A stretch of 64,000 nt of DNA from an uncultured Gaiellales bacterium (GTDB taxonomy: Bacteria > Actinomycetota > Thermoleophilia > RBG-16-64-13). The notes beneath the pieces are model-generated. The model searched no databases. It saw only the letters and a list, made by a program, of their open reading frames with translations, and was not told the origin of the DNA. How positions within the stretch are numbered: position 1 is the stretch's first letter; each line of letters opens with the position of its first letter. The stretch is taken from positions 2,064 through 66,063 of the forward strand of contig CAZWAR010000003.1 in the NCBI GenBank assembly GCA_964631965.1, in the 5' to 3' direction. The position numbers and the translations under genes are program-made. Positions 6,298 to 35,312 of this stretch are shown piece after piece.

Positions 6298-6315
6298 CCC
6301 TCTGACCTCGTTCCC

Positions 6316-6350: not shown

Positions 6351-6399
6351 CGCCGGCCCATGCGCCGTGCGACTCGCCTCTCCTTGTGCTCTCCCCGTC

Positions 6400-17614: not shown

Positions 17615-17633
17615 GACTGCTCCCTGGACCTCG

Positions 17634-18422
<789 letters not shown>

Positions 18423-18461
18423 CTGCTGCTCTCCCGCTCACCATGCGGCGTACCCTCTCGG

Positions 18462-19712
18462 CTACTCGGCGAGGATCCAGGTCCCGCCCTCGATCTTCAC
18501 CATGATCATGTCCGAGGCCACGAGCCCGTCATGGTCTGTGGCGCTGTAGTTGTAGATGCCGTCCGGGCCGGGGAACCCGGTCGTTGAGTTCAGAGCCAAC
18601 TGGATGGCCGCGGCGTCGGTGCTGCCTGCGCGGGTGATGGCATCCGCCAGGATGGTGATGGCCTCGAACGCGTAGCCGGCAAACGGATTCGGCTGGGCAC
18701 TGTAGGTGTACTCGTAGTCGTGTATGAACGCCTCCGTCACTTCTTTCTGCTTGGGATCGGTGATGGAGCTCGGCACGAGCAGCCGCCCGCCCGGGAAGAC
18801 GACCCCCTCCGCAGCGTCGCCGGCAAGCTCGATGAACGTGCGGTTGGCGATGCCGTGGCTGCCCACGTAGGGAATGGTCATGCCCAACTGCTTCATGTTC
18901 TTCGCCGCGAGCGCCGGACCGGGGTTCGTGCCCCAGACCACGAGGACTTCAGGATTCTCGCCTTTGATCTTCGTCAGCTGCGCGGTCATGTCGGTGTCGT
19001 TCGTCTTGTAGGACTCGGACGCCACTACTTCGAGCCCCTTGCCCGGAGCCTGCTTGGCGATCTCGGCATTTCCCGAAGAGCCGAAGGCGTTCTCGTCGTG
19101 GAGTACGGCCACCTTCTTCACCTTGAGGCTGTTCGCGATGTAGTCGAGCGCACGTTCCACGGCCAAGGCGTCCTTCTGCGGTGTCCGCCAAATCCATTGG
19201 TTGGGCTCTTTGTCGGTGACGTCATTGGCAGCCGCCATCGCGATCTGCGGAATGCCCTCCTGCGCGGCGATCTCCTTCACCGCCAGCGTGGAAGAGGACG
19301 TCGTGGCCGCGATGAGGGCCACGGCCTTGTCCTGCTGCAGCAGCTTGTTGGCCGCCGTCACCGCCTCTTTGGGATCGCTCTTGTCGTCTTCCACGACGAT
19401 CTTGAGAGGCCGGCCGAGAACACCCCCCTTGGCATTGATGAGATCCTCTTCCATTTGCAGGACGTTCCGCTCCTGCTCGCCCAGCGCCGACCCCGGTCCG
19501 GTGGCCGACACGATTGCGCCGATCACGATGGGGTCTCCGGTCGGAGCGGCAGCCCCACCCGTGGTGTCGGTACTCGCAGCCGTCGTGGTTGTGGTCTCGC
19601 CGCCGCAGCCGACCGCGAGCATCGCGACCAGCAGGACGGCTGCCACCAGCAGCACGAGACTCACACCCGGGATCGTGCGCGCTCCATTGTTCTTCTTCAC
19701 CGACCTGCTCAT
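18462..19712 (-). CDS. Branched-chain amino acid ABC transporter substrate-binding lipoprotein (LivK-like)
   Basis: 416 aa with a lipobox LAVGC and a type I periplasmic binding fold. Confidence 0.8.
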   Translation of the reverse strand: MSRSVKKNNGARTIPGVSLVLLVAAVLLVAMLAVGCGGETTTTTAASTDTTGGAAAPTGDPIVIGAIVSATGPGSALGEQERNVLQMEEDLINAKGGVLGRPLKIVVEDDKSDPKEAVTAANKLLQQDKAVALIAATTSSSTLAVKEIAAQEGIPQIAMAAANDVTDKEPNQWIWRTPQKDALAVERALDYIANSLKVKKVAVLHDENAFGSSGNAEIAKQAPGKGLEVVASESYKTNDTDMTAQLTKIKGENPEVLVVWGTNPGPALAAKNMKQLGMTIPYVGSHGIANRTFIELAGDAAEGVVFPGGRLLVPSSITDPKQKEVTEAFIHDYEYTYSAQPNPFAGYAFEAITILADAITRAGSTDAAAIQLALNSTTGFPGPDGIYNYSATDHDGLVASDMIMVKIEGGTWILAE

Positions 19713-20497
19713 TGCAGCTCCTCCCCTAGGTACGCCTTGATCACTTCCTCGTTGTTGCGGATCATCAGCGGAGGCCCCTCGGCTATCTTCCTCCCGTAGT
19801 CGAGGACCACCACCTCATCCGATATCTCCATGACGAAGTTCATGTCGTGTTCCACCAGGAGCACAGTGACACCCTCGTCCCGTATTTTCCTCACAGTATC
19901 CGCTAATCGTAAGGTTTCGTCGTCATTCAGCCCCGCGGCCGGTTCGTCGAGCAGGAGCAACCGGGGCCCCGAGGCCAGCGCCCGGGCGATCTCGAGCAGG
20001 TGCCTCTCCCCCATGGGCAGGTTCTCTGCCGGTTCCTCGGCCAAGTGACCGATCCCGATCCTCCGGAGGGCCTCGTGCGCAGCCTTGAACGTTTCGGCCT
20101 CCTCTCGCCGGTGGCGCGGCAGAGTCAGGGCGGCGGCGAGCAGGCCGGCCCTCGTCCGCGAGTAGCGGCCGACCGCCACGTTCTCCACGACGCTCATGTC
20201 GTCGAACACCAGGCTGTGCTGGAAGGTACGCCCCACGCCCATGCGACAGATGCGGTGCGGCGTTTTGCCCCTCACCTCCACGTCCGCTAGCAGCACGGAA
20301 CCCTCGGTGGGCCGGTACGACCCCGAGATGATGTTGAAGAGAGTGGTCTTGCCGGCGCCGTTCGGTCCGATGAGGGCTTTGATCTGGTCCCGATATACGG
20401 TGAAGGTGACCTCGCGCAGTGCATCGAGCCCGCCGAAGCGTTTCGACACGTTCTGTACGCTGAGAAGGGGCATGCCGTTACTCCTCCGTCCCCGCAC
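19709..20497 (-). CDS. livG: Branched-chain amino acid ABC transporter ATP-binding protein (LivG-like)
   Basis: GPNGAGKTT and LPMGERH motifs. Confidence 0.85.
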   Translation of the reverse strand: MRGRRSNGMPLLSVQNVSKRFGGLDALREVTFTVYRDQIKALIGPNGAGKTTLFNIISGSYRPTEGSVLLADVEVRGKTPHRICRMGVGRTFQHSLVFDDMSVVENVAVGRYSRTRAGLLAAALTLPRHRREEAETFKAAHEALRRIGIGHLAEEPAENLPMGERHLLEIARALASGPRLLLLDEPAAGLNDDETLRLADTVRKIRDEGVTVLLVEHDMNFVMEISDEVVVLDYGRKIAEGPPLMIRNNEEVIKAYLGEELQ

Positions 20498-21488
20498 CGG
20501 GTTCCGGCCCGGCAGTTCCCGAGCCCCGCCGGCGGTCCCAGAGGTCCTTTGTCCGACGCCAGAGGTACGGAGTCCCCCTCCCAGCCAACACCATGATGGC
20601 GATGAGCAATACGCCGAACACGAGGTTGGTGAGGTCCTGGTTCACCCGTTTGAGCAGTTCGGGCAGGATGACGATCACCATCGTCCCCCAAAGCGCCCCC
20701 CACAGGGTCCGCAGGCCTCCAATGATCACCCCTGTGATGAGGATGATCGAGAAGGTGATGGTGTAGCTTTCGGGGCTGATGTACCGAATGTGGTAAGCAT
20801 CGAAGCTGCCGGCGATGCTGGCGAACACCGCAGCGATCATGAAGACCTGCACCTTGCGATAGGACGAGTCGATGCCCAGGGATTCCGCCGCCGGCTCCGA
20901 ACGATGCAGCGCACGGAGAGACCGCCCCACTCGGGACCCGGTCAGGTTGAGGGCCACGCGGAACATGAGCAGGGCGACTCCCCATGCCACCAGATGATAG
21001 GCGCGGGGCCCGCTCAGGTCGAGACCGCCCAGGTGAAGAGCCGGTATGCCCGTGAGACCGTCGGTACCGTTGGTGAGAGGCTTCAGCTGAACCAGAAGGA
21101 TGTACACGATCTCGTTGATGCCGAGAGTGGCCATGGCCAGGTAGTAGCCCTTGAGCTTGAGGGTGGGTATGCCCACCAAGCCGGCGATGACCGCAGCCAG
21201 GAGCGCAGACACGATGAGAGCCACCCACGGATCGAAACCAGCCTTCGTGGTGAGGATGGCCGAGCCGTACGCACCGATGCCGACGAACGCCGCCTGGCCG
21301 AGTGAGATCTGGCCCGCCTGGCCGAGCAGCAGACTGAGACCGAGCGCCATCATGAAGCGGGTGGCTCCGAAGGAGAGCACCGAAAGGTAATAGGTGTTGC
21401 CAAGGTAGGCAGGGATGGTCATCACGAGCACCGCGAACAGGAAGTAGGCGGCATGCCGACGGAAGAAGCGGAGGGCGGCCTCGGTCAT
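20478..21488 (-). CDS. livM: Branched-chain amino acid ABC transporter permease (LivM-like)
   Basis: 336 aa polytopic membrane protein. Confidence 0.8.
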   Translation of the reverse strand: MTEAALRFFRRHAAYFLFAVLVMTIPAYLGNTYYLSVLSFGATRFMMALGLSLLLGQAGQISLGQAAFVGIGAYGSAILTTKAGFDPWVALIVSALLAAVIAGLVGIPTLKLKGYYLAMATLGINEIVYILLVQLKPLTNGTDGLTGIPALHLGGLDLSGPRAYHLVAWGVALLMFRVALNLTGSRVGRSLRALHRSEPAAESLGIDSSYRKVQVFMIAAVFASIAGSFDAYHIRYISPESYTITFSIILITGVIIGGLRTLWGALWGTMVIVILPELLKRVNQDLTNLVFGVLLIAIMVLAGRGTPYLWRRTKDLWDRRRGSGTAGPEPGAGTEE

Positions 21489-22363
21489 TGCCTGCCCACC
21501 ACCTTTGCTCCAAGCAGTCCGGCCGGGCGCAGGAACAGCACCAGCAGCAGGATCACGAAGGCGATCGCGTCCTTGTAGCCGGCGGAGACCAGCCCTACTC
21601 CGAGGGCTTCGATGATGCCGAGGGCGAAGCCTCCCAGCACCGCGCCCAGCGGGTTGCCAAGTCCTCCGAGAGTCGCCGCTGCAAAGCCTTTCAGGCCGAG
21701 CAAGGTACCCGAGGAGTAGCCTATGAAGCTGATGGGGGTGATCATCACCCCGGCGGCGGCGGCCACGGCCCCGGTAAGGGCAAACGTGAACATCACCACC
21801 TTGCGGTAGGAGATACCCTGCAGCCGGGCCGACTCAGGGTTCACCGCACAGGCGCGGATGGCCGTCCCGAACAGGCTCCTGCGATAGAAGACCGTGAGGG
21901 CGACGACAACCACCACGGTGAGGCCCACCACCCACAACGTCTGCGGCACCACGGTCGCCCGGCCGACGGCTATGGGTGTCTCGCCACTGAACGCGGGCAG
22001 CGACTTCGCGTCCCTTCCCCAGATGAGCATGGCCGCCGTCTCGAAAACAAACGAGGCCCCTACAGTAGCGATGATCTGCGCGAGCACGCCCTTCCGCAGG
22101 AGGGGCCGGATGGCTACCTGCTCCATGCCCACGCTGACGGCGGCAACCGCCGCAACCGCTCCCAGGAAGCATGCCCACAATGGCAGCCCGGCTTTGTACA
22201 GTGTCACTCCCATCATTCCGCCGAGCATGACCATCTGGCCCTGGGCGAAGTTGATGATCTGCGTGGCGCTGAATACAAGAGTGAAGCCGATGGCGGTGAG
22301 CGCGTACACGCTGCCGCTGGTGATACCGCTGAAGATGTACTGCAGGAACTGGTCGAAGGTCAC
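21485..22363 (-). CDS. livH: Branched-chain amino acid ABC transporter permease (LivH-like)
   Basis: 292 aa polytopic membrane protein; 4-nt overlap with livM. Confidence 0.8.
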   Translation of the reverse strand: MTFDQFLQYIFSGITSGSVYALTAIGFTLVFSATQIINFAQGQMVMLGGMMGVTLYKAGLPLWACFLGAVAAVAAVSVGMEQVAIRPLLRKGVLAQIIATVGASFVFETAAMLIWGRDAKSLPAFSGETPIAVGRATVVPQTLWVVGLTVVVVVALTVFYRRSLFGTAIRACAVNPESARLQGISYRKVVMFTFALTGAVAAAAGVMITPISFIGYSSGTLLGLKGFAAATLGGLGNPLGAVLGGFALGIIEALGVGLVSAGYKDAIAFVILLLVLFLRPAGLLGAKVVGRQ

Positions 22364-22384
22364 AGCCGGCGCCGCTCGCTGGGC

Positions 22385-22810
22385 TCAGACCGTGTCACCC
22401 GGGCCGAGCACCCGGAAACCGCTTTCGACCAACAACTCTTCCATGCGCTCCAGATCCTCTGTCTTTATGCAGAGCGTGTCCCGGTTCCCTTGGTAGATAT
22501 ACTCGATATCCAAACCGGAGTCATGGACAGAGCGCACGACGGCGGCCAGTGCTCCAGGCTCATCCCGAAGCAGCGTCCGCACCACAGGGTGCTCCACCAC
22601 CATGTAACCCGCGCGGTCGAGAGCCTCCTTCGCAGGTTCCACTCTGTCGACCACAAGGCGAAGAATGCCGTAGTCGTTCGTATCTGCGATGGTGAACGAA
22701 TGAATGTTCACGCCGGCCGCAGCCAGAGTGGCGAGTGCATCGGCCAGATGCCCGGGCTTGTTCTCCACGAAAACGGAGAGCTGTGGAACGCTCACGGGAA
22801 CCCCCAACAC
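22385..22810 (-). CDS. Tandem ACT-domain protein (first gene of the ACT-Liv-PaaK operon)
   Basis: 141 aa with two ~70-aa ACT-like repeats (VFVENKPGHLADALATL... / LRDEPGALAAVVRSV...). Confidence 0.7.
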   Translation of the reverse strand: MLGVPVSVPQLSVFVENKPGHLADALATLAAAGVNIHSFTIADTNDYGILRLVVDRVEPAKEALDRAGYMVVEHPVVRTLLRDEPGALAAVVRSVHDSGLDIEYIYQGNRDTLCIKTEDLERMEELLVESGFRVLGPGDTV

Positions 22811-22872: not shown

Positions 22873-24687
22873 ATGGATATGCGCGAGCGTGAACACTGCC
22901 GTCTCGTGGCTCTTGGTCAGGAGCCACCGAACCTTCTCGTCAAGGGGGGGCGCGTTTTCTCGCCGTTCACCGGGGAGATGTTCGAAGCCGATGTGGCGAT
23001 ATGTGGGTCGCTCATCGCAGGCGTCGGCCACTACCCGGGTGAAGCCGCGGCCGTGATCGATGCGCGCGGGATGTTCGTGCTGCCCGGTTTCATCGACGCC
23101 CATGTGCACCCGGAGACCTCTCTGCTATCTCCTCCCCGCTTCGCCGAAGCCTTGGCCGTCCACGGCATAACCACCACTCTATCGGAGCCCCATGAGATCA
23201 CGAACGTCATGGGTCCCGCCGGCATCGATTTCTACTTGGACGCCCGGCCAGGACTGCCCCTGGACCTGCGGATCATGATCCCCACGACGGTCCCGGCCTC
23301 GCCCTTCGAACATGCCGCGGGCAGTCTCGACGCGGCAGTCGTCGCCCGCCTGCTCGAGGAGGACGGGGTCACCGGCATGGGCGAGGCCATGAACTACATG
23401 GGCCTGATATCGGGGGAAGCCTCCGGACAGCTATTCGACCTCTCCGGCCACCGCGTTGTCGACGGCCACGCCCCGGACGTCACCGGCCGCCAGCTTGCCG
23501 CGTACATGGTCGCCGGACCCAGCACCGACCACGAGACCTCCGATCCTGACCTCATCCTCGAGCGGCGCAGGCTGGGCATGTGGACTCTCATCCGCGAGGG
23601 CTCCGCAGCCCGCGATCTCACTCGGGCCCTGCCCTACCTCGTCGAGCACGGTACCGAGCGCACCGCCCTCTGCACCGACGACCGCAACGCTGCGGCCCTC
23701 GCAGAGCACCACCACCTCGACGGCGTGGTGGGCGCGTTGTGTAGGGCAGGCGTGCCGGTGGCGGCCGCGCTGCGCGCCGCCACGGTCAACCCGGCCCAGT
23801 TATACCGGCTCTTCGACCGCGGCAGTCTGACGCCCGGCTTCCGCGCCGATCTTCTGATAGTCGATGATCCGGCGTTCCCGCATCCACGGGAGGTGGTCCA
23901 AACGGGCCGGTTGACCGCCCGCCACGGGGAGCTCGTCATCCCGCTACCCCCTACTCCGCGTCTCGACTCTCCTCCGTTCCGTCTGGAAGTGTCAGACGCA
24001 CGGGACCTCGCCCCTCCTGCACCAGACGGAGTGCATCGCGCCCGGGCAATCCACCTCACGCCGCGCGCGATCACCAACGAGGAGCGGTTCGTAGAGATGA
24101 CAGCCGCCGGCGGCCGGCTGCACGCCGATCCTGAGAGGGACATCTGCCTGGCGGCTTTGATGGAGCGCAGGCCGGGAGCAGCCCGACCGGGCGCTTCGCA
24201 GGAGTTGCCAGTCCTTTCAGCGGCTTCCTTCCCTCTGTCCGACAAAGCGCGCGGGGCCACCCTGTCACGAGGGAACAGAATAGGTCGCGGCCTGGTGAGC
24301 GGCCTCGGGTTGCGCAGCGGTGCGATCGCCACCACCATCGCTCATGACGCGCATCACCTGCTCGTGGTCGGCGTGGAGCCGTCCGACATGCTGCTCGCCG
24401 CGCGTGCAGTCGCCGCGGCCGGCGGCGGGCTGGCGGTCGTCGAGGGGGACAAGGCCGAGATCCTACCGCTCCCGCTCGCCGGGCTCATGGCCGACCTGCC
24501 CGTGAAGACCGTCGCTGCTCAATTGCGCGCACTGGAACGGGCGGCCGAGTCTTTGGGCGTTGATTTCGAGGAGCCGTTCATGGTGCTGAGCTTCATCACT
24601 CTGAGTGTGATACCACGGCTCCGCCTCACCCTCGACGGCCTCCTCGACGTCGGAGACCAAGCCCTCGTTCCGGTCATCGTGGCCTAG
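22873..24687 (+). CDS. ade: Adenine deaminase
   Basis: 604 aa with PGFIDAHVHPETSLLSP, SEPHEITNV and a C-terminal adenine deaminase domain. Confidence 0.85.
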   Translation: MDMREREHCRLVALGQEPPNLLVKGGRVFSPFTGEMFEADVAICGSLIAGVGHYPGEAAAVIDARGMFVLPGFIDAHVHPETSLLSPPRFAEALAVHGITTTLSEPHEITNVMGPAGIDFYLDARPGLPLDLRIMIPTTVPASPFEHAAGSLDAAVVARLLEEDGVTGMGEAMNYMGLISGEASGQLFDLSGHRVVDGHAPDVTGRQLAAYMVAGPSTDHETSDPDLILERRRLGMWTLIREGSAARDLTRALPYLVEHGTERTALCTDDRNAAALAEHHHLDGVVGALCRAGVPVAAALRAATVNPAQLYRLFDRGSLTPGFRADLLIVDDPAFPHPREVVQTGRLTARHGELVIPLPPTPRLDSPPFRLEVSDARDLAPPAPDGVHRARAIHLTPRAITNEERFVEMTAAGGRLHADPERDICLAALMERRPGAARPGASQELPVLSAASFPLSDKARGATLSRGNRIGRGLVSGLGLRSGAIATTIAHDAHHLLVVGVEPSDMLLAARAVAAAGGGLAVVEGDKAEILPLPLAGLMADLPVKTVAAQLRALERAAESLGVDFEEPFMVLSFITLSVIPRLRLTLDGLLDVGDQALVPVIVA

Positions 24688-24744
24688 CGGGGAGACCGGG
24701 CGGTCACCCAACCCGGAGGGCACGCCGCCCCAGACCCGGACCTG

Positions 24745-26013
24745 TCAGTCGCTTCTCAGGGCACCCTCGGTGTAGTTCAGCGAAGCGTTCCAGAGTAGCC
24801 ACTCCGAGTAGCCCAGCTCCTCGGCGGCTCTGATCTCTGCCTTCACCTCCGTCGTCCCGTACTTGACGTAGCCGCCGCCCCCGTTCATGGAGAAATCCTG
24901 CAACCAGGGGCGGATGGTGGCTCCGGTGCCCGGCATACGCTGTTTTGCCTCCTGAAGCGCTTGGCTGACTAGTTGATAGGGGCTCGCGTTGGGCGACGCC
25001 AGACCGAAGGAGTTCACGGCGTAATGTGACGGATAGACCATCGGACAGATGATGTCGAGGTTCTGAGCCATCTGCTCAAGGATCTGTCCGATCCCCTGGT
25101 CGTCGGGGCTCTTCACCCGGAGGGTCATGCCGAAGACATCGGCCGAGATCCAAACACCGAGCGGCTCCAGACGCTTCTTGGCAAATGCCAGGAACCCCGA
25201 GATGGCATCGCTCATCTTCATCCCATTCTGACCCGCGTATACAGCCTGCTTGATGGGGCCTCCGTCCGGGAACCGCACGTAGTCGAACTGAATCTCGGCG
25301 AATCCATGCCTGGCAGCGTCCTCGGCCACCTCGACCAGATACTCCCACACCTCGCGTGAGAACGGGTTGATGAACCGCGTGTGGTTGCTGTAGGTCTCCC
25401 ATATCTCCCCGGTCTCGCCGTTCATGACCGCGAGATCGGGCCTGGCGTTGGGCAACACGGAATCCTTGAAGCACACGATCCGGGCTATCGGAGTGATGTG
25501 ATGTTCCCGCAGCGTCGCTATGAGAGAGTCGACATCCTTGATGCGGGCGCTGATTGTCCCGAGATTCCTGGCCGCCGGGGCGTCACAGTTGTATGTGATG
25601 CTTCCCCAATCGTCCTTGACATCCACGACGAACGCATTGATCTCCGTGGTATCCGCCAGATCCAGTAACGGCTGAAGCAGCTCCGGGTCCGCCAAATGCT
25701 GACTGCCCACGTAGATCCCCTTCACCGGAACATACGAGAGATCGCGCAAAGCCCGCATGTTGACGAGAGGTTCGAGCGGCTGGTCGATCTGAGCCTGCAC
25801 GGCCACGGGAGACAATGAGACGCCCGCTGGTGAAGCCCAGGGGAACCCTTTGCCCCCCACGATGACACTTCCGAGAGACCACAGGAGGATGTATCCGCCG
25901 GCGAAGAAGACCACGCTCGCCAACGCGATCAGGGTGAGCTTGCTCTTTGCCCCCTTGCGCGGTCGAGCCGGTCTGCCCGAGTACGGACGTCCGTTTGCTG
26001 TGGCCTGGCCCAT
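24745..26013 (-). CDS. Membrane-anchored putative glycoside hydrolase (TIM-barrel GH-like family, DUF4015-type)
   Basis: 422 aa with an N-terminal TM segment and a TIM-barrel-like core (INAFVVDVKDDWG, FAEIQFDYVRFPDGG, ICPMVYPSHY). Family assignment is from memory and uncertain. Confidence 0.55.
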   Translation of the reverse strand: MGQATANGRPYSGRPARPRKGAKSKLTLIALASVVFFAGGYILLWSLGSVIVGGKGFPWASPAGVSLSPVAVQAQIDQPLEPLVNMRALRDLSYVPVKGIYVGSQHLADPELLQPLLDLADTTEINAFVVDVKDDWGSITYNCDAPAARNLGTISARIKDVDSLIATLREHHITPIARIVCFKDSVLPNARPDLAVMNGETGEIWETYSNHTRFINPFSREVWEYLVEVAEDAARHGFAEIQFDYVRFPDGGPIKQAVYAGQNGMKMSDAISGFLAFAKKRLEPLGVWISADVFGMTLRVKSPDDQGIGQILEQMAQNLDIICPMVYPSHYAVNSFGLASPNASPYQLVSQALQEAKQRMPGTGATIRPWLQDFSMNGGGGYVKYGTTEVKAEIRAAEELGYSEWLLWNASLNYTEGALRSD

Positions 26014-26058
26014 AGTGGGGGGTATTGTAGCAGAGGGCTCTGCTAGACTTGTCCGACC

Positions 26059-27162
26059 ATGCGGCGCAGGAAAGTGCTTCGTTTTCTAGGGATCGCCTTC
26101 ATCGTGGGGGCCTTTCTCGGGCTGGTTTCGGGGCTCGCGTTCGGCGGTTCCCAGTCGGAGACGGGTACGCCCCGCGCCGTCCTGCCCACGGGCGACCAAT
26201 CCAACCCGGTATCGTCGCCCGCTTCCGCCGGTACGCCATCCACGTTCACGGGACCGATGACCGCGGCCAAGGCGGAGGCCATGGGGGCGAACGAACTCGG
26301 ACAGATCCCGGTCCTGTACTACCAGAGGATCGGGGATGAGCGGGGTGACGACATCCGCAGCCCCGCAGCCCTGGCCGACGACATCGAACTGCTCGAGTCG
26401 GAGGGGTTTCAACCTATCGACCTGCGCGATCTCGCCGCCGGAAACATCGACATCCCTGCCGGGACCTCCCCGGTCGTGCTCACGTTCGACGACTCCAGCC
26501 TGGGGCAGTACAACATCCTCGACGACGGGACCCTCGACCCACAGTGCGCGGTGGGAATCCTCCAGGCGGCCGTCGAGTCGGGCGGGTGGGCGCCGAGAGC
26601 CACCTTCTACTGTCTCATCGACGTGAAATCCAAAGACTACGAGTTGTTCGGCCAGGCCGACCGGCGCCAGGAGAAGCTGCGCAACCTCGTGGACTGGGGC
26701 TACGAGATCGGCAGTCACACGTACAGCAACGTCAATCTCAAGAAGGCCTCCGCCCTCGATGTCCGGAAGGAACTGCAGACATCACAGGAGACTCTGCAGG
26801 GGTTGATCGGCAACAACTATCAGGTCACCAGCCTCTCGGTACCCTCCGGCGACTACCCCGATGACAAAAGCCTGCTCTCGTCCGGGGCCTACGAGGGCAA
26901 GACCTACGTGTACACCTCGGCGGTCACCCTCGGCGAGTCCCTCTCTGTCTCACCCTTCTCCACGCTTTTCGATCCGATGCACATCACCCGGATCACGGTG
27001 ACGGGTAACAGCCTGCGCGACGCTATCGACGAACTCAAAGCGCATCCTGAACTGCGGTACATCTCGGATGGGGACCCCACGACCGTATCGGCACCGTCCC
27101 AATCGGCCGCAGCTCTGGGCTCGCTCAGCGAGGACCTGGGCCGGCCTGTGATTCTCTACTGA
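26059..27162 (+). CDS. Polysaccharide deacetylase (CE4/NodB-homology) family protein, N-terminally anchored
   Basis: 367 aa with N-terminal signal/TM, a CE4 motif 1 (VLTFDDSSLG) and a motif-2-like IGSHTYSNV. Confidence 0.75.
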   Translation: MRRRKVLRFLGIAFIVGAFLGLVSGLAFGGSQSETGTPRAVLPTGDQSNPVSSPASAGTPSTFTGPMTAAKAEAMGANELGQIPVLYYQRIGDERGDDIRSPAALADDIELLESEGFQPIDLRDLAAGNIDIPAGTSPVVLTFDDSSLGQYNILDDGTLDPQCAVGILQAAVESGGWAPRATFYCLIDVKSKDYELFGQADRRQEKLRNLVDWGYEIGSHTYSNVNLKKASALDVRKELQTSQETLQGLIGNNYQVTSLSVPSGDYPDDKSLLSSGAYEGKTYVYTSAVTLGESLSVSPFSTLFDPMHITRITVTGNSLRDAIDELKAHPELRYISDGDPTTVSAPSQSAAALGSLSEDLGRPVILY

Positions 27163-27204
27163 TCGAGTCGCGTCCGCCTGCGGCGCGCGAGGCAGCGTCC
27201 GGTC

Positions 27205-27423
27205 TCACCCGGCCCTGAGGCTCACGCCTTCCCCGCCCTCAACGACCTCGGAACTCCCTCCGCAGAGACCGCAGGTGACGCGCTCCCCGCTCCAGATGCC
27301 CGCTCGCAGGTGCAGCAGCACGTGACAGTAAGGACAGGGAGTGTCCAGATCGGGCTCTTCGTTCTGGAGGGCCACCTTTTCGTCCACGATCTCCCATAAG
27401 GGATCGAACTTCTTCTTTGCCAC
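27205..27423 (-). CDS. Small zinc-ribbon protein (LysW/Trm112-like CPxC...CxxCG architecture)
   Basis: 72 aa: ...PCPYCHVLLHL...RVTCGLCGGSSEVV. Divergent to lipB. Confidence 0.45.
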   Translation of the reverse strand: MAKKKFDPLWEIVDEKVALQNEEPDLDTPCPYCHVLLHLRAGIWSGERVTCGLCGGSSEVVEGGEGVSLRAG

Positions 27424-27482
27424 CGCTCCTCCAGGTCTCGAGGGACCGATATCTCGGTCCTGCGTACGGTATCTTTCCTGAG

Positions 27483-28202
27483 ATGGAACGAGTCTCTCAC
27501 ATCGCAGGCCGGCGCCTCAAGCCGCCGATCCCCGAGTACCAGGTCTTCGACCTCGGCGTAGCCCCCTACCAGCCGGTTCAAGCGCTCCAGAACCGGCTGC
27601 GGGCGGCCGTGATCGCCGGCCAGATCCCCGGGGTCCTTCTCCTCCTGGAGCACGAGCCGGTGATCACGATGGGTAGCCGCGCCGGGCTCCAGGACCTCCG
27701 CGGGTCCTGCGGCGTCCCCGTCGCCGAATCTGAGCGAGGCGGGCAGGCGACCCTTCATGCCCCCGGACAGCTCGTGAGCTACCCGATCGTCCCTATCCCA
27801 GGGCGCGACCTCAGCACTTACGTCAGGGGGCTCGAAGAGGCGAATATCCTTGTTCTCAAACGGTTCGGGGTCGCCTCCGAACGCCGCCCCGGCCGTCCGG
27901 GGCTCTACGTGCAGGGCGACAAGATCTCGTCTGTGGGTCTGCGCTGCCAGAGGTGGGTCGCCAGTCACGGCACCTCTCTCAACGTAACCATCGACCTTTC
28001 CCTTTTCTCAACCGTCGTTTCGTGTGGAGAGCCGGACCTCGGGCAGGTCAGCATCGAAAGCTTGACTGGAGCCCGCCCCGCGATTGCAGCGGTCAAGCTG
28101 GCGTACATACACGCAGTCATACAGGTATTCGGGTGGCGGCTCTCGCCCCTTCGAGCCGCGCCCTACGGTGAGGTTGAGGCTCAGCTCGGATTGAACGGGT
28201 GA
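27483..28202 (+). CDS. lipB: Octanoyltransferase (lipoyl(octanoyl) transferase LipB)
   Basis: Start MERVSH; LipB motifs (LLLEHEPVITMG, LHAPGQLV, KISSVGLR). Confidence 0.85.
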   Translation: MERVSHIAGRRLKPPIPEYQVFDLGVAPYQPVQALQNRLRAAVIAGQIPGVLLLLEHEPVITMGSRAGLQDLRGSCGVPVAESERGGQATLHAPGQLVSYPIVPIPGRDLSTYVRGLEEANILVLKRFGVASERRPGRPGLYVQGDKISSVGLRCQRWVASHGTSLNVTIDLSLFSTVVSCGEPDLGQVSIESLTGARPAIAAVKLAYIHAVIQVFGWRLSPLRAAPYGEVEAQLGLNG

Positions 28203-29294: not shown

Positions 29295-29744
29295 TCAGTC
29301 TTGGGGTTGAGGCTCGGGCGGGAGGTTCGTTGTGAACCTGATCCTATCCTCGGGAGTGCCCGTGGGCTGGTGAAAGAAGGTGGGATTGCTGCAGGCAGCG
29401 CTCGCTGCCCCCGGGTACGCCTGTTCCACCCACACCTTGCACTGTTTGCGCGGCGAGCGATTGAGCTTGATGGCCCCGTACGTATCGACCCCCCGCGCAC
29501 GGCCGCGGCGGTTCTCGAACGCCGAGAGGTCGAATTCGGGCGCAAAGACCTTGTGCAGGCAGCCGAACATCCTGGTCTCGTCGTCGTCATACACGTAGAC
29601 CGAGGAGCAACCGGAATCGAGGCAATGCTGGGGCGAGACGACCCTCTCACAGATGACCTCGCACTCCCGGCACTCCAAACGGGTACGCTGCAGCCGGCGT
29701 CTCCATGCTCCAAGCCTGCTAGAGATGCGGGAATGTCTCTCCAT
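29295..29744 (-). CDS. Cys-rich hypothetical protein (unknown function)
   Basis: 149 aa with CRECEVICE...HCLDSGCSS...FGCLHK. I recognise no family. Confidence 0.4.
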   Translation of the reverse strand: MERHSRISSRLGAWRRRLQRTRLECRECEVICERVVSPQHCLDSGCSSVYVYDDDETRMFGCLHKVFAPEFDLSAFENRRGRARGVDTYGAIKLNRSPRKQCKVWVEQAYPGAASAACSNPTFFHQPTGTPEDRIRFTTNLPPEPQPQD

Positions 29745-29807
29745 GGGCGTGAGTATACCCGCCGTGAGCCCGCAGGGGCCGAGTTCGGCGCGGCCATCCG
29801 CTCGGCC

Positions 29808-30809
29808 TCATTCGACGGCCTCACGGCGCGTACCGGGTACCAGCCTCGTGCGCACCAGGGATCGGTCGGTGGCCCAGCGAAGCACTGCAGGTGAGAACGT
29901 CACTCCGCCGTCGACCCCCATGTCAACAGTTCGCGTGGCGAACACGGCCCCATGCAGCCTCGTCCCCTCCAGGAACACAGCTCCCCCGTCAGCGACGATG
30001 ACCCCGTACACGTCCCCGCGTTCGCTCGCATCCACCGATGCCCCACCGATGACCACGAACAGAGCCGGCATGGTCGCCTCGTTCCCCCAATCGGCCGGTA
30101 TGGAGGTGGTCCCGGACCGGCGATCAAAGATTATGACCTGCGGACCCGGTGCCAGACCGTCCCGGGCGGGGAGACCGTCTGCACCGACAGCCGGCGCGGA
30201 GTCCATGCAAAAACGCCGCCAGCCGTCATCGAGGCCCCACGAACGCCCTAGCCCACTCAGGCTGACACCTGGACCGAGAAGTGGTGACGGTGAAGCCATC
30301 CTCACAAGTCCGGTCGGCTGAAGGCCTACGGCCTCCTCGGTCTGCAACCAGGCATTCGCCCGCCCGGACGCCCAGGTGACCTGATCGGCCACCAAGCCGA
30401 CGAAAGGCAAATCGAATCCGTCGCTTCCGCGCTCGATCCATGCAGACACCTCGACCGGCAACACCGACGTCTCATGCGCCGCGGTGACCTCGAGTAGCAG
30501 GTCCGGGCTCCCCGTCCCCGCGGCGACACTCGCCCACACCCCCGCCGGCCAGCCGTCGCGAGCGTCAAGTCGCCGCTCGAACGTACTCCAAGAACCGAGC
30601 AGGTCGTCGCGCACCCATGCCAGTGCGCTATCGTTCTCTTCCATCAACAGCCGTCCCCTGGCCTCGGCTTCGTTGCCGCTGTCGAGACACACCGCCACAG
30701 CGGCCACCACCTGGACCAGCACCGCTACCCCCAGGCAGACGAACAACACCAACAGGAGAATGGACCCCTCCTCGCGGGCAGACGCGGGCCGCCCGGAGAG
30801 GCCGCTCAC
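29808..30809 (-). CDS. GspK/ComGG-like pilus-associated membrane protein (N-terminal TM helix, no Glu+5)
   Basis: In-frame GTG at 30809 overlaps the TGA of the upstream pseudopilin (GTGA coupling). The N-terminus is VSGLSGRPASAREEGSILLLVLFVCLGVAVLV. It is the last gene of the pseudopilin run. Confidence 0.5.
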   Translation of the reverse strand: MSGLSGRPASAREEGSILLLVLFVCLGVAVLVQVVAAVAVCLDSGNEAEARGRLLMEENDSALAWVRDDLLGSWSTFERRLDARDGWPAGVWASVAAGTGSPDLLLEVTAAHETSVLPVEVSAWIERGSDGFDLPFVGLVADQVTWASGRANAWLQTEEAVGLQPTGLVRMASPSPLLGPGVSLSGLGRSWGLDDGWRRFCMDSAPAVGADGLPARDGLAPGPQVIIFDRRSGTTSIPADWGNEATMPALFVVIGGASVDASERGDVYGVIVADGGAVFLEGTRLHGAVFATRTVDMGVDGGVTFSPAVLRWATDRSLVRTRLVPGTRREAVE

Positions 30810-31465
30810 CGACCCACCTCGGTTGAAGCCACCATTTCCGGCCGACCAGGACCACGATCGGCTCGGCCGACCAGATGAATGAAAACCGTGTCGAGCTGAC
30901 AAAGCGTAGTGGCCGGCATCGCGTCGCATTCTTGCCCGAGGCAAACGAAAGAGAACCTCGAGCTGGTGGTGTCCACGTCCTCCAGCATGGTCTTGCTGTC
31001 GCGATAGAGGGCGTGAGGGAAGACCTCGGGCATGAGAGCCGGACAGAAGCCCCAGCGACGCATGAGCGTCCCCCCTATCAACTCCCATTCGACTATGGTC
31101 GACACTCCCGAATCAGACAACCGGAGCAACACGAGCTGGGATGGCGTGGCCTGCAGAACCAGCCCGTCGACTTGGAAGGCGCAGCCGGAAGCGGTGGAGA
31201 GCCGCACATCCTGCTCGAGCCTCGCCACCGCCACCCGCCCCTGCGCGACCCACACCGCGTTGTCTCCCTCGACTGCCGCTAAGGACTCCAACGACACCCA
31301 GATGGGTGCCACTGCGAGTGCCAGACACAGGGCAAGAGCAAGGCCGAGGAGCACCTCTATGAGCGAATAACCCTCCGAGCCGGCGGCTCCGACCCCCCTC
31401 CTCTCGGGCCGGCACGCCCCCCGCATGCTCCTGACCCACCGGTCGAGGCGTACCGTCCGAGACCT
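30806..31465 (-). CDS. Prepilin-type N-terminal cleavage/methylation domain pseudopilin
   Basis: ...GSEG|YSLIEVLLGLALALCLA (G-1, E+5). The start is assumed at MRSRTV. Confidence 0.65.
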   Translation of the reverse strand, partial: RSRTVRLDRWVRSMRGACRPERRGVGAAGSEGYSLIEVLLGLALALCLALAVAPIWVSLESLAAVEGDNAVWVAQGRVAVARLEQDVRLSTASGCAFQVDGLVLQATPSQLVLLRLSDSGVSTIVEWELIGGTLMRRWGFCPALMPEVFPHALYRDSKTMLEDVDTTSSRFSFVCLGQECDAMPATTLCQLDTVFIHLVGRADRGPGRPEMVASTEVGR

Positions 31466-31475
31466 CATAACCCGT

Positions 31476-32252
31476 CTAGAAGTAGAGGTCGACACCCCGC
31501 CCCTCCTCCATCCACCACCATTGCCATTGACCGCCGAGCGCCGCCCCGGCCCAGCCTGACACCGGCGGATCCGCGGTGAAGACCAAGCCTGGCGGATGCG
31601 CCATGACCGGCTCCGATCCCCAGGAGACGTGCATGGCGGACGTGCCCGCCTGGGGGCGATGGACCACCACGGCCGGACTGAACGAGGGCAACCCTGCCGA
31701 GACGTTCGCTGCCGGTGGGCCTCCGGTGGGAGCGGGGACGACCGACCGCCGGGGCGGCCCCCAGATTCCATCGCCGGTTCGGACCCGGGCGATCACTTCG
31801 TCGCCTTCGAGCCCTGTCCACTTCCAAGGTTCTATCCGCGTCTCTCCAGGCAGGTCGGGTTCGGCGCTCGCGTCGAGCACGGGCGTCTCCAGGAGGAGGA
31901 GCCCGTCCGCCCATATGCCCAGCGTGGCCTCCGATGTCGACGAACACGCCCCGGGCGCGGTGCTCACATGTAGAACCGGCCCCGGACCCCACCAAGCCCC
32001 AGCCACTCTGGGGCCCCACTCCCAGGCCGCGGCCGTAGCGGGTGCCCAGGCCGCGGACTGAGCGCCGGCAGCCTGTCTCGCCAATCGAGACCGTTCGACC
32101 ACACCGGCGAACGCTGTGAAGAGAGGAACCACCAGGATCCCTACGAGCGCAACGGCCGCGATGACCTCCAAGAGTATGAAGCCGTCTCGCAACCGCAGGA
32201 GGCGTCGCAGGGTGCGCGCTCGCCTCCTTTTCACTGCGCCGCCTCCTCGCAA
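31476..32252 (-). CDS. Prepilin-type pseudopilin
   Basis: ...LRDG|FILLEVIAAVALVGILV prepilin motif; 258 aa. Confidence 0.65.
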   Translation of the reverse strand: MRGGGAVKRRRARTLRRLLRLRDGFILLEVIAAVALVGILVVPLFTAFAGVVERSRLARQAAGAQSAAWAPATAAAWEWGPRVAGAWWGPGPVLHVSTAPGACSSTSEATLGIWADGLLLLETPVLDASAEPDLPGETRIEPWKWTGLEGDEVIARVRTGDGIWGPPRRSVVPAPTGGPPAANVSAGLPSFSPAVVVHRPQAGTSAMHVSWGSEPVMAHPPGLVFTADPPVSGWAGAALGGQWQWWWMEEGRGVDLYF

Positions 32253-32761
32253 GACCTCCTGGTGAGGCCACTCTCCAGACGCACCGTGACCCGGTAGTCG
32301 TCGCCCGGAGCTTTGAAGTAGACGGAGCCGGCCGCATTGGGATGACCGGAGAGAGCGGCAAAGACGACGATCACCCCCTGGGCGGTCCGCCAGCGGGGAA
32401 CGTTTGCGACCTCGGCCACTGGGGGAACGGCGCTCCCGAGGTCCCAGCTGCTGCCACCCGGGTCCGCCGCTACGGCCAGGCCGGCGGGTGACGATTCGAG
32501 GACTTCATTCGTCCCCTGCCACACTGCTCCGGTTTGGGCGCACGCTGCCGCCACCTGCCATATCTGGGCTCCGCCCCTTGCCTCCACCGTCTCGATACCC
32601 CGGGGCAGCAGCACCAGCCCGATTGCGAGACAGATCCCCAGTAGTACGAGGACGACCAGCAGCTCGACGAGCGAGTGCCCCGATTGTCCGGAAACTACCG
32701 GGTGGGCGGAGGCTGGATGAGCGGCCCGCGAGCGAAGCCTTGAGTGCGTCCCACTTTGCAT
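32231..32761 (-). CDS. Prepilin-type pseudopilin (GspH-like position)
   Basis: ...SGQSG|HSLVELLVVLVLLGI (G-1, E+5). The N-terminal extent is uncertain. Confidence 0.6.
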   Translation of the reverse strand: MQSGTHSRLRSRAAHPASAHPVVSGQSGHSLVELLVVLVLLGICLAIGLVLLPRGIETVEARGGAQIWQVAAACAQTGAVWQGTNEVLESSPAGLAVAADPGGSSWDLGSAVPPVAEVANVPRWRTAQGVIVVFAALSGHPNAAGSVYFKAPGDDYRVTVRLESGLTRRSCEEAAQ

Positions 32762-32834
32762 GGGCCAAGGCTACTGGGGGTTCGGCCGATCAGAGATCGG
32801 ACCTTAGTCTGGCGCTGGCGGAGGAGGCACGTGA

Positions 32835-32865
32835 GGCCGGCGGCGCTCGCACGAGCGCCCGGCCT
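32835..32865 (-). terminator. GC-rich hairpin downstream of pilin gene 1 (candidate attenuating terminator between major pilin and pseudopilins)
   Basis: ggccgg-gcgctcg-tgc-gagcgc-cgccggcc inverted repeat 70 nt after the pilin stop. Confidence 0.4.
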
Positions 32866-32933
32866 GCCGAACGAGCAGACCAGGGCGGACCCGGCCTCCG
32901 CCTTCTCCGACAATACTCAGAATCTGCGGTCGG

Positions 32934-33479
32934 CTACCAGCCTAGTCCCGCAGTCCCCTCGATGACCTTCACCTTCACGTAGCCGCTCTCAGAAACGTTC
33001 AGCGCGTTGACCTGGATGCCGAACATGTTACCGCTCTCGCTCTTGCACGCCAGGTCGACGATATCCCCCGACTCTGGGTAGTACTCCACCTGGTTTGCCG
33101 CCGCGTCGGCGGTTAGCGCGTCGCTTATCCAGGCCGGTTCCGTGCTCACCAGATCATCGTCGGCCCGAATGAAATCGATACTCGGCTCGATGGCGTGAAG
33201 ATCGTCCGCTTCGATCAGTGTGTAGTCGTTTGTATCGACGAAAGCGCCCTGGATCGCGGTGAGAGAGTTTCGAACCAGCGAGTAGGCCGCTGCGTCCTGG
33301 GCGTGCTGGCGCTGCCCCATGAAGGTGGGGATGGCAATGGTGGCCAACACGGCGATGATGATGATGACGACCAGCAGTTCGATGAGCGTGAACCCGGCCG
33401 CGGCGTGACTCCCGACTCGGAGACTCCGCAGCATCCGCTGCCAGCGCCTGTTCCACATTATCTTCTCGATGGTCTTCAT
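32934..33479 (-). CDS. Type IV pilin (PilA-like major pilin), paralog 1
   Basis: ...AAAG|FTLIELLVVIIIIAVLATIAIPTFMGQRQ; C-terminus ...GTAGLGW. Confidence 0.8.
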   Translation of the reverse strand: MKTIEKIMWNRRWQRMLRSLRVGSHAAAGFTLIELLVVIIIIAVLATIAIPTFMGQRQHAQDAAAYSLVRNSLTAIQGAFVDTNDYTLIEADDLHAIEPSIDFIRADDDLVSTEPAWISDALTADAAANQVEYYPESGDIVDLACKSESGNMFGIQVNALNVSESGYVKVKVIEGTAGLGW

Positions 33480-33513
33480 GAGCCGCGCCCTCCTTCTGCG
33501 GCTTGATAGTATG

Positions 33514-34158
33514 TCAGGACGTGCTAGGGGTCGTGTTGTTCAAGTCCAGGGTGAGCCCCGATGCCGCAGCTATCCGACGCAACTCGTCCACTTCTCCCGC
33601 TCTTCCCTGCCGCTCGAGGAGCGAGATCAATACCACATAGGCGTGGGGATAGGAGCTGTCAGTCACCAGTGCCCTTCGCAAGCTGGCCTCAGCCGATTCT
33701 TCTTCTCCGGCGGATAACTGGGCCGAGCCCAAGAAGCTGAGATACTGAGCCGTGGGCTGGAGCCGACACGCTTCCTCGAATACCTGCACGGCTTTCCCGG
33801 CCTGCTCTTGGTGGTTCAGATAGTTGAACCCCAGTTCCACCCTGATCTGGGCTTCTCCGGGGTCCATCTCCACAGCCTTCTCCTGGACGGGAAGCGCTTC
33901 ATCCCACCGACGCTGAACGTACAGCACGGCGGCGAGAGCTTTCGTGGCAGAGACATCATCGGGATGCGCCGCCACGCATTGCTGGTAGAGCTTCGCGGCT
34001 GCGGCGAGATCCCCGGACTCCATCGCCTTCCCGGCTTGAGAAAGCGTACCGGAGCAGCTCGCCAGGGCGACGGCCAGCAGCACGAACGAGACCATGGATA
34101 CCCAGCGGGTGATGGTCGCTCTGTGGTTTGTGTCTGCCCGGTCGGGTCTTTCCTGCAT
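33514..34158 (-). CDS. TPR-repeat lipoprotein
   Basis: 214 aa with a signal peptide and lipobox (ALASCSG) and TPR-like repeats. Located between the two pilin paralogs. Confidence 0.65.
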   Translation of the reverse strand: MQERPDRADTNHRATITRWVSMVSFVLLAVALASCSGTLSQAGKAMESGDLAAAAKLYQQCVAAHPDDVSATKALAAVLYVQRRWDEALPVQEKAVEMDPGEAQIRVELGFNYLNHQEQAGKAVQVFEEACRLQPTAQYLSFLGSAQLSAGEEESAEASLRRALVTDSSYPHAYVVLISLLERQGRAGEVDELRRIAAASGLTLDLNNTTPSTS

Positions 34159-34236
34159 CTGCGACTCCTAGCGAACTCCGGACTGGATACCACCGTTCTT
34201 GGTGACGTTCGCAGCCAGAGCAGTTACTTGTCCTCT

Positions 34237-34274
34237 AGCGAAATGGGGCCCCACAGATGGGGCCCCATTTCGCT
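34237..34274 (-). terminator. Perfect 16-bp-stem palindrome downstream of pilin gene 2
   Basis: agcgaaatggggcccc-acagat-ggggccccatttcgct begins 19 nt after the pilin-2 stop. Confidence 0.5.
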
Positions 34275-34292
34275 CAGGTTTCGTCTTGATGA

Positions 34293-34775
34293 TTACCAGC
34301 CGGCGCTGGTGTCGCCGTCGATGGTCTTGACAAAGGTCGTCGAGCCTCCGGCGCCCTTGTCGGTCACCACGCCGAACACGTTGCCGGATTCGCTAGCGGT
34401 CGCGATCTCGAAAGTGGTGCCATCGCCGAAGAAGTCCACGGCAGCGTCGGTAGCCACCTGGGTCGCAGCCACGGCCGGCGTATCCGCGCAGACGCCGCCG
34501 TCGGCGTCTTTGACGAATTCAATCGACGGCTCGATAGCGTTGAGCTCGTCGCCGGTCACATCATACGTGCGGGAGTCGACATAGGCGGATTCCAGGGCGG
34601 TCATGGCATTGCGGACGAGTGATTTAGCAGCTGCGTCCTGGGCTTTCTGACGCTGGCCCAGGAAGGTCGGGATGGCGATCGCCGCCAGGATGGCGATGAT
34701 GATGATCACCACCAGGAGTTCGATGAGGGTGAAACCTTTTTCGCCCTTCATCCTTTTGTGGATCTTCATGAACAT
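34293..34775 (-). CDS. Type IV pilin (PilA-like major pilin), paralog 2
   Basis: MFMKIHKRMKGEKG|FTLIELLVVIIIIAILAAIAIPTFLGQRQ...SAGW. GGAGGAGGA Shine-Dalgarno 8 nt upstream of the start. Confidence 0.8.
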   Translation of the reverse strand: MFMKIHKRMKGEKGFTLIELLVVIIIIAILAAIAIPTFLGQRQKAQDAAAKSLVRNAMTALESAYVDSRTYDVTGDELNAIEPSIEFVKDADGGVCADTPAVAATQVATDAAVDFFGDGTTFEIATASESGNVFGVVTDKGAGGSTTFVKTIDGDTSAGW

Positions 34776-35312
34776 CGTGTGTGTTCCTCCTCCTGTTTGT
34801 TCGCGGACTCTTTTTGTTTGAGACCGCGAACCTTTCGCGGCCCAGCACGCCAGGTGTGACGTACCGCTTTCTTCATCGGCCAGTGTGGGGCAGGACTTTA
34901 GGGTTTCTTTTGCGACTTTGGTGCAATTTTGGCGCGGCTGTCTACTGAGAGCTCGCACACGCACGTCGAACGCGCCCTATATGGACCATTCGAAGCCCCG
35001 AACGGCACCTCGGCCTAAAGGCCCAACCCGCGCCTGCCGATACTCCTGACAGGACTAGAACGGGGGTCAACGTGGTCCCGGCCGAGTCTTCTCGGATCCC
35101 TCCTCCAGAGAGGGTCATTCATCCGCCATGCGGCCGAAACCTCAAGGCTTGTGCGGTTCTGCCGATACACATGGAGAACCCATCGAGGGAGGCACCGAGG
35201 CATGAATGCTTCAGCGCTCAGGTATAGGATCGGTCCGGCCAGATCCTCAGATGATCGCCCGTGTCCAGACGCGCGCCGTCGCGGAACCGGAGACCGGCAC
35301 CGCCTGCGCGAG

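Follow-up and report, generated by a model that had tools for sequence, protein, structure and literature searches.

Two divergently oriented genes, one encoding a protein of the DUF4015 family and the other a deacetylase-like protein of the CE4 family, lie side by side in a 64,000-nucleotide stretch of contig CAZWAR010000003.1 from an uncultured Gaiellales bacterium (hereafter the window). We see about an even chance that they encode a conserved extracytoplasmic glycan-remodelling pair that has a pseudo-deacetylase subunit, the pair probably acting on the cell wall. Comparisons with other genomes support the view that the two genes form a functional unit, a split version of a bifunctional deacetylase-glycanase. 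The genes are as follows:

24745..26013, minus strand: DUF4015 gene, 422 amino acids, predicted membrane-anchored extracytoplasmic (beta/alpha)8 glycanase-like protein
26059..27162, plus strand: CE4 gene, 367 amino acids, circularly permuted PgaB/IcaB/PplD/BA0330 (NodB2) type, predicted to be catalytically dead

Both open reading frames (ORFs), reported in a first-pass annotation as a divergent pair with a shared region of 45 nucleotides, were recovered with that spacer at 26014-26058. Codon-position GC supported both genes, the GC content at third codon positions (GC3) being 0.78 for the DUF4015 ORF and 0.83 for the CE4 ORF in a sequence of 65% GC. The same annotation had proposed a glycoside hydrolase-like triosephosphate isomerase (TIM) barrel next to a CE4 protein, and the Pfam searches that we ran on both ORFs agreed with it. 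DUF4015 (PF13200), annotated in Pfam as 'putative glycosyl hydrolase domain', was matched over profile positions 1-313 of 313 (E = 1.7e-110; 369.5 bits against a threshold of 27), and Polysacc_deac_1 was matched by the CE4 protein above the gathering cut-off (E = 2.4e-11; 44.1 bits against 23.1). No other Pfam family matched either protein at E <= 0.1. NCBIfam yielded only weak CE4 matches for the CE4 protein, all of them sub-threshold, with 12.5 bits for the PgaB model (TIGR03938) against a cut-off of 321.9. The closest relatives were found in uncultured Actinomycetota metagenome-assembled genomes (MAGs), and remoter homologues bear names such as Thermoleophilia bacterium. Each protein begins with a basic stretch and a hydrophobic helix, the latter also present in the structural models. 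This fits an N-in/C-out membrane anchor for both and would therefore place the catalytic domains outside the cytoplasm, as had been suggested.

To follow the pairing in other genomes, we scanned 80 DUF4015 loci, taken from contigs of one genome per species, with a profile of the CE4 subfamily of the window. The divergent pair was present in six other Actinomycetota genomes (loci L001 and L003-L007). The neighbourhood is syntenic throughout this clade, including lipB, RNase Z, the ACT gene and the liv genes, and the weightier evidence for pairing therefore comes from fusions and tandems elsewhere. Fusions apparently occur in both domain orders: DUF4015-CE4 in a single ORF of a Clostridia MAG (L050) and a Bacillota MAG (L064), and CE4-DUF4015 in a single ORF of an Armatimonadota MAG (L043). 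Tandem genes were found in Rokubacteria (L068), Acidimicrobiales (L065) and Candidatus Contubernalis (L086). With a fused protein as query, 33 of the 120 best-matching cluster representatives were themselves fused, which bears out the idea that the window holds the split form of a bifunctional enzyme. Altogether, fusions, tandem pairs or divergent pairs occur in at least five phyla, and single-chain fusions in at least two. No description of a DUF4015 and CE4 pairing was found in the searchable literature.

In four Bacilli loci (L062, L072, L074 and L080), DUF4015 adjoins a classical PdaA/PdaB/PgdA-like CE4 gene on the same strand (6728-7729, 6880-7803, 724-1674 and 7422-8273, respectively). 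Three of these CE4 proteins had PdaB/PdaA/PgdA-like matches in NCBIfam, under the equivalog cut-offs. The genera are Alkalibacterium, Oceanobacillus and Pseudogracilibacillus, and the arrangement is an independent partnership with a CE4, the second for DUF4015. Clustering of the DUF4015 neighbours across the 80 genomes recovered lineage synteny only and was uninformative on substrate; in Paenibacillus the neighbours were YitT, a DEAD helicase, MatE, PFK and DUF2600, and in Bacillaceae they were MecA and an ArsC/Spx-like protein. In the unrelated contigs L083 and L088, the divergent neighbour of the fused DUF4015-CE4 gene is a sigma-70 region 2/region 4 gene of the extracytoplasmic function (ECF) type (8396-9034 and 7194-7769, respectively). 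It is followed by a second gene (7228-8421 and 5999-7204), whose product in L083 is a zf-HC2/DUF4349 protein; the one in L088 gave no Pfam match. The sigma-factor neighbours hint at a possible regulation by envelope stress.

The fold of the CE4 protein was nearer to PgaB, IcaB and PplD than to classical CE4s, and its histidine motif lies N-terminal to TFDD. It is of the circularly permuted PgaB/IcaB/PplD/BA0330 type, and the PgaB-type assignment of the first-pass annotation was thus upheld on structural grounds. We aligned a profile of 32 orthologues to PplD, BC0361, BA0330 and BA0331. In this alignment the family motif llYH corresponded to LMYH of PplD (H105) and VLMYH of BA0330 (H150), TFDD fell on D167/D168 of PplD, and HTvs[HN] fell on HTVNH of PplD (H223/H227). 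The corresponding positions in the window are:

26323..26325, plus strand: codon of Q89, at the position of the catalytic His in permuted CE4 proteins (PplD H105, BA0330 H150, BpsB H49)
26488..26493, plus strand: codons of D144-D145 in motif 1 (TFDD), catalytic Asp and metal-binding Asp, both kept
26716..26730, plus strand: motif 2, H220-T-Y-S-N224, first metal-binding His kept and second replaced by Asn
26989..26991, plus strand: codon of R311, invariant, probable equivalent of PplD R302 and BA0330 R343

Two of five positions are changed (Q89 and N224), and D144, D145, H220 and R311 are kept. Compared with a competent CE4, motif 1 is intact (TFDDS; T142-F-D144-D145), motif 2 departs from H(S/T)xxH, and YQ stands where the catalytic His would be expected. 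That motif 2 reads HTYSN and not H-x-x-x-H had been seen at first pass, and the change from H to N can be read directly from the sequence. The suggestion of altered metal coordination drawn from it understated the case: the catalytic His is also gone, so that the deacetylase activity itself is doubtful. In PplD, H105 serves as a bifunctional acid/base, and either H105A or D167N abolishes function (PMC8807736); the deacetylase of BpsB is likewise inactivated by H49A and by D114A (PMC5933820). R311 is located in a late modelled strand (309-313), and its equivalence to PplD R302 and BA0330 R343 is one of position only. The role of these two arginines is to hold the catalytic Asp, and in BA0330 the residue is supplied by the last strand (PMC4505593). 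We also considered H308 (in MHITRI) as a motif-5 catalytic His and rejected it, as R, K or A occupy this position in orthologues and fused relatives and the permuted type has its catalytic His before TFDD.

We then inferred a neighbour-joining tree from 116 full-length CE4 orthologues and counted residue changes by Fitch parsimony. The window protein belongs to a clade of 38 members, all of which have N at position 224 (S in one), whereas H is present at this position in 71 of the 78 sequences outside the clade. Position 89 is highly variable within the clade (H in 16 members, Q in 14, G in 3, V in 2, E in 2 and R in 1), D145 is replaced by G or H in 5/38 and H220 by Q in 2/38. The full H-D-D-H-H-R set is found in 69 of the 78 sequences outside the clade, the remainder being scattered, independent degenerate lines. 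Over the whole tree the minimum numbers of changes were at least 16 at site 89, 8 at 224, 7 at 145 and 6 at 220, compared to none at Y88 and R311 and one at D144. Degenerate sets also occur in the fused homologues P0279, P0341 and P0347 (YEDGYA, YRDDQD and YQDGYA, respectively), whose CE4 domains are no longer recognised as such by precomputed Pfam; this appears to show independent pseudo-enzyme evolution within the fused proteins.

The gene itself has been retained. Within the clade, the ratios of non-synonymous to synonymous substitutions (dN/dS) were 0.11-0.19 for the CE4 gene and 0.09-0.22 for the DUF4015 gene, values that are rough since dS was saturated (>1), and in the same genome pairs the CE4 protein was better conserved than its DUF4015 partner. 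The CE4 gene is under purifying selection and is not decaying. A decaying pseudogene was rejected on these ratios and on the dozens of diverged orthologues that are full-length. The loss of catalytic residues in a retained protein points to a non-catalytic role, and most likely the window CE4 is a pseudo-deacetylase. There is a precedent in BA0330 and BA0331, which bind peptidoglycan, are without deacetylase activity and are complemented by catalytic-Asp mutants (PMC4505593).

The barrel of the partner gave no sign of such degeneration. Its domain is:

24772..25719, minus strand: DUF4015 TIM-barrel domain, residues 99-414, all family-conserved residues kept

In an alignment of 241 diverse DUF4015 sequences, positions D131, K133, R178, D184, E240, Q242, D244, Y245, R247, D292, Y327, S329, H330, R368, W370, Q372 and W408 showed conservation of at least 95%, and none of these residues is missing from the window protein. 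The AlphaFold2 model of the protein is a (beta/alpha)8 barrel (predicted local distance difference test score 83) with the conserved polar residues at the strand ends. The catalytic acid of GH18, GH20 and GH153 enzymes occupies the position just after beta-4; D244 (codon 25282-25284) directly follows the modelled beta-4 strand (residues 240-244) and is a candidate for the catalytic acid of the barrel. Because all family-conserved residues are present, the barrel is probably an active glycan-cleaving enzyme, either a hydrolase or a lytic transglycosylase.

The top structural neighbour of the model was Cwp19, and further neighbours were GH29, GH20, GH42, GH5 and GH18 enzymes; no GH114, GH166 or GH135 structure was among the 60 best fold matches. 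The barrel matched neither the Pfam family of GH114/GH166 (PF03537) nor GHL10 (PF02638). Searches of the PDB with the single sequence and with the family profile retrieved only 4s1a (Cthe_0052), so that the links to Cwp19 and PgaB are ones of fold. The family is large, with >7,900 clusters at 90% identity matched in Bacillota, Actinomycetota, Chloroflexota and others, and one of the clusters contains an SH3_3 domain. A full-text literature search found no characterised DUF4015 member, and queries for 'PF13200' and 'COG1306' returned nothing useful.

As to the substrate, we lean, with slightly less than even confidence, to the cell wall, that is, to peptidoglycan or a wall-linked polymer containing N-acetylglucosamine (GlcNAc). 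We do so because the top structural neighbour Cwp19 cleaves peptidoglycan; because PplD, which acts on the wall, and BA0330/BA0331, which bind peptidoglycan, are among the nearest relatives of the CE4; because Bacilli pair DUF4015 with CE4s resembling peptidoglycan deacetylases; because of the SH3_3 domain in one DUF4015 cluster; and because the genomic contexts are housekeeping ones with no conserved synthase gene. We further count the fusion of DUF4015 to YkyA/PdcF, a cofactor domain of peptidoglycan deacetylases (PMC12700454). A substrate resembling poly-N-acetylglucosamine (PNAG) seems to us a minor prospect.

The context was examined by Pfam scans of about 50 ORFs over the whole 64-kb window, which is a core housekeeping block. 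It carries recG, fakA/degV, the riboflavin operon, rpe, fmt, def, priA and metK, followed after the pair by lipB, RNase Z, a pseudopilin cluster, dut, dapF, miaB, RNase Y, recX and recA, and at its end by pgsA, rimO, rodZ, ftsK, RNase J, dapB, PNPase and rpsO. No glycosyltransferase or polysaccharide synthase was detected among these ORFs, as the first-pass annotation had remarked for the vicinity of the pair. There was no PNAG- or Pel-type synthase in eight other annotated contexts, nor was a synthase gene conserved beside the module in any context examined. Two glycosyltransferases near fused genes were rejected as synthases: in L084 the adjoining GT2 protein resembles HpnI (hopanoid), and in L088 a small GT2 protein, encoded 3.6 kb from the fused gene, had only generic GT2 matches far under every cut-off.

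These observations bear on the role for which the pair was first proposed, a split module of the PgaB/PelA type whose active enzymes would mature a secreted exopolysaccharide (PNAG, Pel or galactosaminogalactan-like) and trim it during export. The combination of deacetylase and glycanase is the one such systems use, but we give the proposal a low probability. A synthase is missing from the window and from the eight other contexts, the genes are part of a syntenic core-genome block, the barrel has no GH114, GH166 or GH135 signal, the PgaB model falls far under its cut-off, and the CE4 protein is without the catalytic His and one metal-binding His.

It is also rather unlikely that the CE4 protein is still an active deacetylase or esterase, with Asn224 as metal ligand, another residue or substrate assistance replacing His89, and the pair working like its H-type relatives. 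The retention of Y88, D144, D145, H220 and R311 would agree with such an enzyme, as would the purifying selection on the protein and the presence of H89 in 16/38 clade members. However, the equivalent-His mutants of PplD and BpsB are dead (PMC8807736, PMC5933820), the residues that replace H89 (Q, G, V, E and R) are chemically unrelated, and D145 and H220 also drift. This is the pattern of relaxed constraint on a site and not of a new catalytic solution. There are further, independent degenerate lines both outside the clade and among the fused proteins.

A deacetylase with a glycanase is a catabolic combination too, and the fused homologue in L085 is located beside sugar-binding proteins and an AraC-type two-component system. 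Even so, a scavenging pair that degrades exogenous chitin, chitosan or the walls of other microbes for nutrition is very improbable: carbohydrate-binding modules are absent from most family members, as is any secretion beyond the membrane anchor, sugar transporters and kinases are not found next to the genes in the window or in most of the contexts, the place within the housekeeping core is a conserved one, and a dead deacetylase would be of no help in catabolism. That the two genes are unrelated neighbours, adjacent by inherited synteny, can practically be dismissed; conservation within the syntenic Actinomycetota clade proves little by itself, but the explanation is contradicted by single-chain fusions in at least two phyla, by tandems in the otherwise unrelated neighbourhoods of Rokubacteria, Acidimicrobiales and Bacillota, and by a 45-nucleotide control region that is better conserved than the coding sequence.

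The transmembrane (TM) anchors of the two proteins are:

25861..25950, minus strand: DUF4015 TM anchor, residues 22-51, AKSKLTLIALASVVFFAGGYILLWSLGSVI, helix in the model, with a conserved GGxGFP motif after the helix
26065..26148, plus strand: CE4 TM anchor, residues 3-30, RRKVLRFLGIAFIVGAFLGLVSGLAFGG, with the glycine zipper G17xxxG21xxxG25xxxG29-G30, helix 3-26 in the model

The sequence GFILLWSLGSxxVGGxGFP of the DUF4015 anchor is nearly invariant in 29 orthologues, and the linker behind it is variable. The CE4 zipper ends in GLAFGG, which is invariant in 32 aligned orthologues; its glycines are kept in the orthologues that span the helix, and the next linker is again variable. The few fused or tandem relatives that were inspected by eye have no glycine zipper. 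Judging from these patterns, helix-helix packing of the two anchors may stand in for a covalent link. Both anchors end in a hydrophobic-G-G motif, which might be a helix-packing surface or a processing site.

The spacer between the genes has the following features:

26014..26058, no strand: divergent control region with two back-to-back extended -10-like boxes and no Shine-Dalgarno at either start
26041-26049, plus strand: putative -10-like box TGcTAGACT, serving the CE4 gene, read by eye
26032-26024, minus strand: putative -10-like box TGcTACAAT, serving the DUF4015 gene, read by eye
26028..26045, no strand: perfect palindrome TAGCAGAG-GG-CTCTGCTA (8+2+8), located between the two -10-like boxes and overlapping them

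About 42 of the 45 nucleotides are identical in L003 and L004 (manual count), where the flanking proteins are 65-70% identical. The palindrome, formed by the upstream halves of the two -10-like boxes, is identical in these two loci; in L001 and L006 the arms differ, with one mismatch per pairing. It could be a shared operator or the mere symmetry of a bidirectional promoter. The boxes end 9 and 10 nucleotides before the two ATGs, which in conjunction with the missing Shine-Dalgarno sequences suggests that both transcripts may be leaderless or near-leaderless. A sigma-70 consensus scan of 24600-27500 found no promoter, and the boxes are therefore only putative in this function.

We propose that the genes encode a two-subunit, membrane-anchored, extracytoplasmic module for glycan processing, composed of the DUF4015 barrel and the permuted CE4 protein. 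In the ancestral and commonest state, the CE4 domain would de-N-acetylate a GlcNAc-type residue and thereby make or mark a site that the barrel binds or cuts. PgaB-type enzymes offer a precedent, in that the hydrolase cuts only deacetylated PNAG (PMC5933820). In the window lineage, the CE4 protein would have been kept as a glycan-binding pseudo-deacetylase that targets, scaffolds or regulates the DUF4015 enzyme, and the subunits would associate perhaps via their conserved glycine-rich TM helices.

Several points weigh against this glycan-remodelling pair. The activity and substrate of the barrel are suggested by fold likeness at 13-14% identity, in a family with no characterised member. The inactivity of the window CE4 is predicted from mutants of its homologues, and the residue equivalences were drawn from profile alignment and secondary-structure positions, not from superposed coordinates. 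Asn can ligate metals and H89 is kept in 16/38 clade members, so some of these may stay active. The dN/dS ratios are imprecise owing to saturation, and the absence of a synthase applies to the 64-kb window and the contexts examined. Finally, the pointers to a physical association of the two proteins, which would be a further step, are the fusions and the conserved TM segments only.

A broader and more tentative reading, which we hold to be possible but doubtful as a joint claim, is that DUF4015 and the permuted CE4 constitute a widespread, undescribed system for cleaving wall glycans. DUF4015 would then be a new family of glycoside hydrolases or lytic transglycosylases, with the CE4 as its subunit for substrate recognition or licensing. 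In several lineages, that of the window included, this subunit would have turned into a pseudoenzyme that steers the glycanase non-catalytically and is bound to it by paired glycine-zipper TM helices. Should DUF4015 prove to be wall-cleaving, it would add a new family to the autolysins or remodelling enzymes of Gram-positive bacteria. Fusion and adjacency give DUF4015 its first functional partner, a de-N-acetylase of the PgaB/PplD type, and suggest two definite candidates for the substrate, PNAG on the one hand and peptidoglycan or a wall-linked GlcNAc polymer on the other. That a constrained CE4 protein has repeatedly lost catalytic residues is a natural experiment on the non-catalytic service of CE4 to the barrel, and would add a genetically coupled case to the few known CE4 pseudoenzymes (BA0330/BA0331 and BA3943).

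Several other features of the window were observed. A 72-amino acid zinc-ribbon ORF with four cysteines (27205-27423, minus strand; weak LysW-like match, E = 6e-4) is located between the CE4 gene and lipB, and a 73-amino acid gene takes its place in L001. On the other side, DUF4015 is separated from the ACT-domain gene by an adenine deaminase gene of opposite orientation (22873-24687, plus strand). It looks like a lineage-specific insertion into the syntenic block, because in L001 DUF4015 and the ACT gene are immediate neighbours. The ACT gene (22385-22810) encodes a protein with two ACT domains, next to the end of an operon for a liv-type branched-chain amino-acid ATP-binding cassette transporter (16313-22810, minus strand) that includes a PaaK-like ligase of the adenosine monophosphate-forming kind (16313-17704); the arrangement is conserved in L001. 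Also syntenic in L001 is a type IV pilus or pseudopilin-like cluster (29295-34964, minus strand) of four ORFs with prepilin N-methylation motifs and a TPR protein; ORFs 29295-29744 and 29808-31088 beside the prepilin-like ORFs have no Pfam match. Two proteins contain TIG/IPT domains (35151-36881, plus strand, and 62035-63987, minus strand). The former adjoins two ORFs without Pfam matches (36886-37596 and 37532-39139), and the latter combines TIG with a CE2_N-like region, PG_binding_1 and a YkuD L,D-transpeptidase domain, an unusual architecture for a wall enzyme.

The module can be compared with several known systems. PgaB of Escherichia coli and BpsB of Bordetella combine a CE4 with a GH153 domain and act on PNAG. 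The window barrel is of the DUF4015 family, not GHL13, and showed no sequence similarity to GH153 in the searches made; the module consists of two polypeptides, each with its own TM anchor, has no pgaACD-like context of synthase and porin, and its CE4 is without equivalents of the catalytic His and one metal-binding His. Cwp19 of Clostridioides difficile (GHL10/DUF187) is a peptidoglycan lytic transglycosylase (PMC6016235) with 14% identity to the window barrel; it is anchored by CWB2 repeats and has no CE4 partner, whereas the window barrel is anchored by a TM helix. PplD of Streptococcus pyogenes and IcaB are de-N-acetylases of the permuted CE4 type, associated with the membrane or the cell surface. 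The H105/D167/D168/H223/H227 set of PplD is complete, where the window protein has Q and N at two positions, and in the literature covered PplD is not paired with DUF4015. BA0330, BA0331 and BC0361 of Bacillus anthracis and B. cereus are NodB2-type CE4 lipoproteins with a non-enzymatic role at the cell wall; they keep all catalytic residues and have an Fn3 domain and a lipid anchor, in contrast to the window CE4, which has lost residues and is coupled to DUF4015. Cthe_0052 (4s1a) is a truncated DUF4015 fragment of 233 residues from structural genomics and is uninformative on function. PelA, Agd3/Ega3 and Sph3 join GH166, GH114 and GH135 domains with CE4 or CE18 in the processing of Pel and galactosaminogalactan, and share with the window pair the logic of a deacetylase and an endo-glycanase on a hexosamine polymer. 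The genetic coupling that marks two-component deacetylase-glycanase modules was found here in the form of fusions, tandem pairs and divergent pairs. The module appears to be of the deacetylase-glycanase kind. Its components, a barrel of an uncharacterised family and a permuted CE4, are fused or adjacent across several phyla, and in the window the CE4 is probably a pseudo-deacetylase.

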